This document shows positions 639-1,730 of a stretch of 6,115 bases of DNA, piece after piece; positions within the stretch are counted from its first letter, which is position 1; every line of letters starts with the position of its first letter. Source of the stretch: a virus. Taxonomy: Duplodnaviria > Heunggongvirae > Uroviricota > Caudoviricetes. The stretch lies in IMG/VR virus record IMGVR_UViG_2684622618_000021. One strand, written 5' to 3'. The notes below the pieces were generated by a model. That model was not told where the DNA came from and searched no databases. It worked only from the letters and a program-made list of their open reading frames with translations. The position numbers and the translations under genes were made by a program.

Positions 639-1730
639 TCACCCCCTGAATCCCGGCGGAATTTCGGTATCCGGTTCAGAAATATGATTCACACAACGCT
701 GGTTGTTCGTGCCGCTTACCGGGAGCAACCAGGGGTTTTCAAAATTCCGGTCCGGCCCAAAAAACGTCGTCGCTCGCTGAACAAATTCCGTTCCCGCTTT
801 CCCGGTCGCCGCCAGGTATCTCGCGTAACGCCTCACACCATCCAGCATGGTCTCTGGTGGCACCCCCTCGCGCAATCTGGCCTTCCAGGCACTGAATGCG
901 GATTTCTTCGGGTTTGCTCCGGCACGCAACGGGTACTCCCGCCAGACCTGTTCGAACACATCCGGATAATCCACTCGTCCCACAGGCTGCCCGGTGTTTT
1001 CCGGGACTACCCGATCGGCTTCCCGCTGAATGGCGGAATCGGCTTCAGGCTGCTGCAGTTGGTGTGATTGCTCCGACCCTGCGGTCATCACCTGCTGCAC
1101 AGCGCCCGAATCGGCTTCCGGTGTCGTGCCTGCTGGCTGACCAGGATTGACGGTCTGAACATCCCCTGCCTGGTTCGTGGTGTTTTTTTTGCCATGAACC
1201 ATAGTGTTTTTGTCCTGTTCCTGTTCTTTCTCCTGCTCCTGTTCCTGTTCTTGGCTTCGAAGCCCCTTAAAAGCCCCTTCGAAGCCCCTTACCGAATTTC
1301 GGCTATTATTCCGCCTCACATCCAGATGGAAATCCGTTTTATATCTGTCGTAAAACACTGACAGAAAAGCGTTTTCAGGTAATGATGCATACTCATTCCT
1401 GACACCTGCACAACGGTTATCGCCAGGCTTCAACGTTTCCCCAACCTGCCAGGCTGCCATTTCATGGACCCAGACCATCTCTGCATCATGGTCATAGCTA
1501 CAAAAACCAGCTTCAACAGCCCTTTTAAGCCCCTTTGAAGCCCCTTCCAGACCAAGCCCGGTTTCATGAGCAAGGTATAAAACTGGCAGGTAATACAAAC
1601 CCAGCATATTTGCGTGAGGGGATGTCATCAGGTAAAAAGCAACAACTTGCGCTTCTGCACCCGCCTTTCTAAGTTCTCTCCCCGTTTCTCCCAGCCAGAA
1701 TCGCGGAGAAACTTTTGCGTAATCACGCAT
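639..1730 (-). CDS. O-like replication initiation / replisome-organiser protein, about 363 aa
   Basis: Minus-strand ORF ending at a TGA at 639-641, 6 nt upstream of the DnaC-like start (coupled pair). Preferred start is the ATG at 1730 with a GAGGT Shine-Dalgarno; the track's upstream start at 1841 has none. Gene order initiator then helicase loader is the lambdoid O-P / Rac ydaU-ydaV arrangement. Contains an internal (Q/E)n linker and DNA-level direct repeats. Family assignment is from memory, not from a search. Confidence 0.65.
   Translation of the reverse strand: MRDYAKVSPRFWLGETGRELRKAGAEAQVVAFYLMTSPHANMLGLYYLPVLYLAHETGLGLEGASKGLKRAVEAGFCSYDHDAEMVWVHEMAAWQVGETLKPGDNRCAGVRNEYASLPENAFLSVFYDRYKTDFHLDVRRNNSRNSVRGFEGAFKGLRSQEQEQEQEKEQEQDKNTMVHGKKNTTNQAGDVQTVNPGQPAGTTPEADSGAVQQVMTAGSEQSHQLQQPEADSAIQREADRVVPENTGQPVGRVDYPDVFEQVWREYPLRAGANPKKSAFSAWKARLREGVPPETMLDGVRRYARYLAATGKAGTEFVQRATTFFGPDRNFENPWLLPVSGTNNQRCVNHISEPDTEIPPGFRG
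1213..1252. repeat. CCTGTT-type hexanucleotide tract encoding the QEQEQEQEKEQEQ low-complexity linker of the O-like protein
   Basis: Directly visible: gtcctgttcctgttctttctcctgctcctgttcctgttc. On the minus strand this encodes SQEQEQEQEKEQEQDK. Confidence 0.7.
1257..1289. repeat. Three tandem 11-bp direct repeats with core AAGCCCCTT, inside the O-like gene
   Basis: cgaagcccctt / aaaagcccctt / cgaagcccctt at 1257-1267, 1268-1278 and 1279-1289. Overlaps the 12-bp palindrome ggcttcgaagcc at 1252-1263. Encodes GFEGAFKGL on the minus strand. Confidence 0.7.
1518..1547. repeat. Second cluster of the AAGCCCCTT-core direct repeat (2 good copies plus 1 degenerate), inside the O-like gene
   Basis: cagcccttt, taagcccctt, tgaagcccctt at about 1518-1547. 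Encodes GLEGASKGL on the minus strand. Lies about 260 bp from the first cluster. Confidence 0.6.

Follow-up and report, generated by a model that had tools for sequence, protein, structure and literature searches.

Tandem repeats within a prophage initiator gene

Can the gene for a phage replication initiator carry, within its own coding sequence, the sites at which its product starts replication? The question was raised by IMG/VR virus record IMGVR_UViG_2684622618_000021 (Caudoviricetes), a stretch of 6115 bp (hereafter the window) that shared 99.5% identity with chromosomes of E. coli O157:H7, where it lies within a lambdoid prophage. Its replication-initiator gene, on the minus strand at nt 639–1730, contains two clusters of short tandem repeats, A and B, for which the original prediction had proposed a role as origin iterons. 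Comparative evidence supports well the view that both clusters are iterons bound by the N-terminal winged-helix domain of the protein encoded by this same gene, and these iterons, together with the adjacent tract coding for the interdomain linker, probably constitute the replication origin of the prophage.

The repeated word was the 9-mer AAGCCCCTT, which reads AAGGGGCTT on the gene strand. Five exact copies were present in the window, every one on the plus strand (nt 1260–1268, 1271–1279, 1282–1290, 1527–1535, and 1538–1546), against a chance expectation of 0.07 copies on average; none of 200 dinucleotide-preserving shuffles contained five or more. Period-11 arrays were detected by Tandem Repeats Finder at nt 1260–1291 and 1520–1546. 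Cluster B (nt 1249–1290, minus strand, coding for residues about 148–160) held three exact copies, on the gene strand at nt 1290–1282, 1279–1271, and 1268–1260, followed by a conserved half-unit at the 11-bp phase (AAGCCAAGA on the gene strand, nt 1249–1257). The three perfect 11-bp copies originally reported at nt 1257–1289 are thus perfect in the 9-bp core but not in the 2-bp spacers (AA, CG, and AC); counted from nt 1257, unit 1 is identical to unit 3, and unit 2 is off at two positions. The neighbouring 12-bp palindrome, GGCTTCGAAGCC (nt 1253–1264), was confirmed; it overlaps the first core and represents the junction between the direct array and the half-unit. Cluster A (nt 1505–1546, minus strand, coding for residues 62–75) comprised two exact copies (nt 1546–1538 and 1535–1527 on the gene strand) separated by the dinucleotide ca, and two degenerate units in phase with them, AAGGGCTGT at nt 1524–1516 and AAGCTGGTT at nt 1513–1505, so that of the second cluster previously placed at nt 1518–1547 the two exact copies stand and the rest consists of degenerate units. 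A spacer of about 215 bp (nt 1291–1504, minus strand), coding for the rest of the winged-helix domain, separates the clusters.

The peptides GLEGASKGL and GFEGAFKGL occur in the minus-strand ORF as had been described. A period of 11 does not divide evenly into codons, so each of the three copies in a cluster falls in a different frame, and repetition of a peptide therefore does not explain the repeat within a cluster. No further 9-mer was found within 6 kb on either side of the module in the reference genome. The window thus contains at least three direct repeats of one word in helical phase, as is general for iteron origins.

Conservation of the 9-mers at the DNA level

Homologues were fetched with peptide patterns lying outside the repeats (EMVWVHE, YLMTSPHA, MTSPHAN, and AGFCSYD). 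The resulting set had 45% to 80% protein identity and third-position GC of 0.40 to 0.89, with a codon alignment of 34 sequences; the hosts included Enterobacteriaceae, Burkholderiales, and the genera Raoultella, Citrobacter, Acinetobacter, Caballeronia, Cupriavidus, Janthinobacterium, Thiobacillus, Pseudoxanthomonas, Methylovulum, Rhodopseudomonas, and Gemmatimonas. In nearly all of these genes, AAGGGGCTT was located on the gene strand at nt +185 and +196. One codon each predominated in the cluster A cores, namely GAA for E62 (30/30), GGG for G63 (32/34), GCT for A64 (30/33), AAG for K66 (32/32), GGG for G67 (30/33), and CTT for L68 (32/34), whereas four codons were used for S65, the codon that contains the spacer base, and three to five for other invariant residues. 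In the cores, normalised synonymous entropy was 0 to 0.35; 60 other conserved codons averaged 0.80 (Mann-Whitney p = 1.3e-7). Nucleotide conservation beyond codon requirements in homologous initiator genes, which had been suggested as a check, was thus strongly positive. A DNA-level function on top of the peptide repeat is borne out, a kept peptide with freely varying synonymous sites being the opposite of what was observed. To the extent that sequence comparison allows, the 9-mers are shown to be under purifying selection at the DNA level independently of the peptide.

These data bear on the view that the repeat is a protein motif only, EGAxKGL occurring twice, and that the identity of the DNA results from peptide conservation, duplication, or gene conversion. 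The peptide is indeed conserved, cluster A lies in a structured helix, and the enteric cluster B resembles a copy of cluster A, as gene conversion could have produced. Nevertheless, this view retains next to no probability, because the synonymous sites of the cores are frozen over the whole range of third-position GC while other conserved residues vary in codon, each cluster is read in three frames, inverted cluster B encodes a different peptide (see below), and non-coding copies exist; recent transfer of a single DNA segment is excluded by the spread of third-position GC. An explanation by overlapping ORFs (nt 1068–1361 and 1204–1353 on the plus strand, nt 1430–1573 on the minus strand) was considered and rejected, as only the 9-mers are conserved, with variable spacers and an orientation that differs between lineages.

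Orientation of cluster B

Two to three copies of the word stand just before the SQEQEQEQ linker in almost every homologue. Cluster B of the O157 type and of its Raoultella and Citrobacter relatives reads AAGGGGCTT on the gene strand and encodes EGASKGL or EGAFKGL, and in most lineages it is inverted, reading AAGCCCCTT on the gene strand and encoding EAPSKPL. The codons of the inverted form are as uniform as GCC (28/28), CCT (25/27), AAG (28/28), CCC (24/28), CTT (25/28), and AGC (29/29). Inversion keeps the word and alters the peptide, hence it is the DNA and not the peptide that has been retained. The distance between the starts of clusters A and B was 243 to 298 bp in 51 of 52 loci with inverted cluster B and 328 bp in the remaining one.

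With cluster B inverted, A and B form 20-nt inverted repeats about 250 nt apart in most lineages, and a long-range stem in mRNA or single-stranded DNA, acting as a cruciform or as an RNA switch for translation or priming, might be envisaged. Even in the window, the arms at nt 1253–1285 and 1510–1542 are 73% complementary, owing to the nearly palindromic nature of the 9-mer. There is very little probability in such a stem: no stem is possible in the lineage of the window, where both clusters are direct, some arrays consist of five to seven copies in one orientation, and the repeats had no Rfam match, the only Rfam match in the window being DicF, far from them. When pairing was examined at the 52 loci, the spacer dinucleotides of A and inverted B did not covary; full pairing was possible at 25 loci and mismatched at 27, and among the 25 pairable loci 24 had the self-complementary CG in both clusters, leaving one compensatory pair (GT/AC).

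Linkage of the 9-mers to the N-terminal domain

Among 2.9 million viral contigs, 96 loci with three exact tandem copies were found, 63 of which were in or beside a gene for the N-terminal domain and one in a truncated form of the same gene. Another 29 of the 96 arrays belonged to one other metagenomic family, which has the same layout of two clusters, EGAxKGL peptides, and a low-complexity linker, and which proved to be a remote homologue (hhalign probability 92.5%, E = 5e-7, with both motifs aligned). In an unbiased sample of this remote family, 29 of 66 distinct loci possessed at least two exact copies, on contigs of 28% to 53% GC; relatives more distant than these were without the word. The 9-mers are thus shown to be obligately linked to the N-terminal domain, so that, as in iteron origins, the repeats are conserved as DNA and co-inherited with the N-terminal domain of the initiator. 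The family is very large, with 6930 clusters at 50% identity in a profile search (E ≤ 0.001). Homologues of the N-terminal domain are carried by Stx1 phages of Shigella and E. coli (75/02 and POCJ13) and by Klebsiella and Acinetobacter baumannii phages, the O157:H7 prophage of the window being a further member; Shigella phage 75/02 represents replication-region type Eru4, which was described without information on the origin (PMC8951638).

The three loci not accounted for in the scan (L165, L193, and L198) carry triple or longer arrays without a recognisable N-terminal-domain gene over them; they could be second origins, or belong to initiators too divergent to be detected.

Together with the two clusters and the linker tract, the N-terminal domain behaves as one unit that is fused to unrelated C-terminal domains and followed by either a DnaB-like helicase or a DnaC-like loader. 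The mosaic joint between the two modules in the window was located at about nt 1210, where similarity to other initiator genes ends: the E. coli C-terminal module (nt 641–1210) shared 91% to 93% identity with other initiator genes and was present in about 2400 genomes, and the E. coli N-terminal module in 470 genomes. The location of the joint within the hexamer tract that adjoins cluster B, and the fusion of one N-terminal module to many C-terminal domains, could be taken to mean that the words and the tract are recombination microhomology, a hotspot for exchange of the modules. This is most improbable as the selected function, since it leaves unexplained the position of cluster A in mid-domain, the 11-bp phasing, and the copies found upstream of the gene in Acinetobacter loci; module exchange is more probably a by-product of a conserved DNA element.

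Unit number varies among the homologues. Three prophage copies (L071, L072, and L099) have one cluster A unit more or fewer and are frameshifted. In a Burkholderiales metagenome-assembled genome, the cluster A of a decayed second copy of the gene (L027, nt 1483–1557) is made up of seven tandem units and its cluster B of one direct and three inverted ones; at another locus of the same assembly (L038), cluster B comprises one direct and five inverted units. Such alleles are what a slippage-prone contingency locus, switching the initiator gene by frameshift, would produce. It is nonetheless a very unlikely function of the 11-bp units, as slippage requires repetition but no set word and the 9-mer is identical in families that can barely be aligned, and as the frameshifted copies resemble decayed prophages.

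The initiator protein and its predicted structure

The gene starts within a 400-aa ORF (nt 1841–639, minus strand). A start at Met38, giving a protein of 363 aa, was chosen, as the PHROG profile match begins at residue 38 and the RefSeq counterpart, WP_001205823, has 363 aa. Profile matches were to PHROG 1701 and 3729, both replication-initiator families, and the ORF was filed with initiators and DnaD-like proteins. The protein consists of a predicted N-terminal winged helix (residues about 1–145), a disordered stretch with a QEQEQE linker (about 146–175), and a C-terminal module, whose putative role is to recruit the helicase loader. No Pfam-A family matched the whole protein at E ≤ 0.01 (hmmscan) or the N-terminal domain at E ≤ 1, and the N-terminal domain was likewise without match among NCBIfam and PDB sequences.

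An AlphaFold model of residues 1–165 had a mean pLDDT of 83.7, exceeding 90 across most of residues 20–140. Its elements, a helix at 25–36, a strand at 45–47, helices at 50–57 and 60–73, strands at 77–80 and 85–88, and two further helices, predict a canonical winged helix-turn-helix. Foldseek returned nothing significant from the PDB, and the neighbours among viral predicted structures were replisome organizers and replication initiators. Codons 62–70, within cluster A, encode the start of predicted helix 3, usually the recognition helix, and in a model of the remote family the first cluster (codons 59–69) falls on the equivalent helix, 55–64. The chain is disordered from about residue 145, with pLDDT below 50 at the segment encoded by cluster B, around codons 148–158, which fits the tolerance of that segment to change in peptide.

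If helix 3 reads the 9-mer, the recognition element would be encoded by its own recognition site. This idea is tentative and somewhat more likely wrong than right. Were it true, the determinant of specificity and its target would be inseparable by recombination, which would explain why an identical word is frozen across barely alignable initiator families from hosts of 28% to 69% GC; the EGASKGL and EAPSKPL peptides would be dictated by the DNA, and changes in the number of repeats would be absorbed by the frame-tolerant hexamer linker.

The C-terminal 24 residues of the protein, ISEPDTEIPPGFRG (nt 639–710), showed a weak match to the C-terminus of DnaT (NCBIfam, E = 0.002; PDB 6aep, 2ru8, and 9zbt). 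This tail is conserved where the homologue is followed by a DnaC-like loader, and it may be a peptide that docks to the loader or helicase.

Elements of the putative origin

Directly after cluster B lies a hexamer tract, (CAR GAR)n, at nt 1205–1250 (minus strand), which codes for the interdomain linker QEQEQEQEKEQEQD, has periods of 6 and 18 in Tandem Repeats Finder, and is about 78% purine on the gene strand. Nearly all homologues have it after cluster B, and two of them (L024 and L033) read it in a different frame. The tract is a candidate for an unwinding or spacer element of the origin, although its third positions showed no bias toward A in GC-rich hosts (p = 0.21), for which reason a role at the DNA level is only a suggestion. 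Just past the tract, where the exchangeable C-terminal module begins, an imperfect inverted repeat surrounds a T8 run (nt 1171–1201; TGGTTCGTGGTG TTTTTTT TGCCATGAACCA), with 9 of 12 positions forming Watson-Crick pairs. The resulting order is similar to that of ori-lambda, in which iterons, an asymmetric tract, and a palindrome follow one another.

Neither another repeat family nor a strongly AT-rich candidate origin was seen in the replication module, DnaA boxes were absent near the initiator gene, and scans for promoters and terminators in nt 600–3400 gave no more matches than in shuffled sequences.

In the mechanism proposed, monomers of the N-terminal domain would bind head-to-tail to the asymmetric 9-bp sites, the 11-bp spacing aligning them along the same face of the helix. 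Across the roughly 250 bp that separate them, the two arrays could then be brought together in a higher-order complex like the lambda O-some. DNA would be opened near the iterons, and the exchangeable C-terminal domain would recruit the phage DnaC-like loader with host DnaB. Such binding, the activity as an origin, the joining of the clusters by a loop, and the place of unwinding are all inferred.

Several points weigh against an origin at this position. In addition to the lack of A bias in the linker tract, no pronounced AT-rich unwinding element was found by the repeats in profiles of nearest-neighbour stability and AT content: the best candidates were the tract region at nt 1181–1250 (56% to 63% AT) and nt 1321–1380 (63%, the highest between the clusters), flanking 40-bp segments did not exceed 63% AT, and 15 segments elsewhere in the window were more AT-rich and less stable. 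A spacing of 11 bp leaves little room for a domain of about 140 aa; it appears feasible by analogy with PhoB/OmpR, whose winged helices bind head-to-tail to direct repeats of 11-bp period, such packing being sterically possible. PhoB and OmpR are transcription factors and not initiators, and homology to them is not claimed. The prophage may be defective, in which case the origin might not fire in this strain. In the searchable literature, no binding or replication experiment on this initiator family was found, and no description of the 9-mer repeats either, many subscription papers lying outside its reach.

Finally, the sites could serve mainly in autoregulation or copy control, and this is the main rival to origin function. 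In that case the 9-mers would be operators or copy-control elements bound by the initiator or by some other regulator of the phage, possibly as an intragenic autoregulatory roadblock or through handcuffing between copies, with the origin located elsewhere. In five Acinetobacter loci (L010, L012, L014, L015, and L019; nt 2963–2993), extra 9-mers in both orientations lie in non-coding DNA 15 to 40 bp upstream of the initiator start codon; this position just 5′ of the start is typical of autoregulation and suggests such a role in that lineage. The lack of a clear adjoining AT-rich unwinding element speaks for the same alternative, as does the fact that in iteron plasmids the same sites are used for initiation and for control. 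On the other hand, an origin located elsewhere would have to do without any other repeat family or strongly AT-rich candidate in the replication module, and with no 9-mer within 6 kb on either side. The N-terminal domain is the sole local component that is always found with the sites, whatever regulators adjoin, and sites at the interdomain linker of an initiator gene match known intragenic origins (PMC7466680, PMC6316719). A purely regulatory role is accordingly regarded as unlikely, though it is the alternative to be taken most seriously, and iterons of an origin remain the preferred reading.

Comparison with known systems

Origins within initiator genes are known from lambda and Stx phages, in which the origin is in the middle of gene O (PMC7466680), and from SPP1, in which the oriL repeats inside gene 38 are bound by gp38 (PMC6316719). 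The best reading of the present arrangement, by analogy, is that it works like lambda O/ori-lambda and SPP1 gp38/oriL while belonging to neither sequence family. The description of the gene as O-like therefore holds for function and gene order, that is, the PHROG assignment as initiator, the DnaC-like gene downstream, and the succession of N-terminal module, linker, and exchangeable C-terminal module, but not for sequence, as the N-terminal domain does not match the Pfam family of lambda O (Phage_rep_O).

Resemblance to lambda O/ori-lambda, also as found in Stx phages P27 and 933W, includes an origin (here putative) within the initiator gene at the junction of an N-terminal DNA-binding part and a C-terminal part that recruits a partner (PMC7466680), repeated sites in coding sequence such that changes in copy number add or remove residues, and a position in a lambdoid early operon with a helicase-loading gene next. 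As in lambda, the repeated putative sites lie in the initiator gene near the linker; cluster B abuts the linker tract, and cluster A is 250 bp upstream. The two systems differ in that the iterons of lambda are contiguous, four to six in number, each about 19 bp long, and adjoin a marked AT-rich tract, whereas here the words are asymmetric, 9 bp long with an 11-bp period, and distributed over two clusters about 250 bp apart, with no clear AT-rich region found; the partner is a DnaC/IstB-type ATPase here and lambda P in lambda.

Likewise, SPP1 gp38/oriL has direct repeats within its own initiator gene to which the initiator binds (PMC6316719), such binding being predicted in the present case, as well as a winged-helix N-terminal domain, the nearest viral neighbours of the model being annotated as replisome organizers, and the same type of module, an initiator with a loader or helicase. 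The Pfam model for the N-terminal part of replisome organisers did not match here, and SPP1 differs in having oriR as a second origin, in its distinct AT-rich unwinding element, and in host range and repeat sequence. Plasmid iterons (RepA of pPS10 or pSK41, RepE, and pi) are about 17 to 22 bp long and lie outside the rep gene, in contrast to the 9-bp words in coding sequence here. The present repeats are further set apart from those of lambda and SPP1 by the length of the site, by two separated clusters whose relative orientation varies, by the position of one cluster within the codons for helix 3, and by the retention of the same word in hosts that are very distant.

The prediction of an origin and of initiator sites extends to a family of initiators, in phages and prophages, that is very large, uncharacterised, and without a Pfam or NCBIfam model. 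The 9-mers are also an unusually clean natural case of DNA-level constraint on coding sequence, acting in three frames, in either orientation, and across phyla. They represent a hazard for annotation, in that conserved "protein motifs" may be imposed by DNA and 11-bp slippage gives rise to frameshifted alleles.

Neighbouring genes and other features of the window

Downstream of the initiator gene, its partner at nt 1–632 (minus strand, ending at the edge of the window) encodes a DnaC/IstB-like AAA+ helicase loader, with matches to Pfam IstB_IS21 (2e-18) and Bac_DnaA and to the DnaC-like helicase loaders of PHROG 50 (7e-67); the RefSeq counterpart is labelled "ATP-binding protein". Also on the minus strand are genes for a Cro/YdaS-like protein (nt 3217–2945) and a YdaT-like protein (nt 2961–2471). 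The latter is broken by a run of 40 N (nt 2819–2858) bordered on each side by the identical 15-mer GCTCGAAATACGCTT, and the RefSeq counterpart is 65 bp shorter than the window at this point; the run looks like a scaffold join of overlapping contig ends and not real sequence.

The plus strand encodes a cI-like repressor and a PaaA2/ParE toxin-antitoxin pair (Pfam). These genes are flanked by two copies (nt 3251–3289 and 4285–4324) of a 39-bp palindromic element, ACAATAAAAAACTGT and ACAGTTTTTTATTGT separated by 9 bases; the two copies probably act as left and right operators of the immunity region.

Two antiparallel overlapping ORFs each matched a family, nt 1809–2264 on the plus strand (NCBIfam NF033230, "ECs1072 family", 2.7e-30) and nt 2457–1948 on the minus strand (phrog_8304, 4e-120), the latter in agreement with the direction of the operon. 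Substitutions by codon phase (29 versus 17 and 18) leaned slightly to the plus-strand frame, and one of the two family models may have been built on the wrong strand.

A gene for the DicF antisense RNA was located at nt 5906–5957 on the plus strand (Rfam RF00039, 76.9 bits). In the reference genome (L001), dicB is annotated just downstream of DicF and YdfB upstream; this region is a dicBF-type cell-division inhibition cassette of the prophage.

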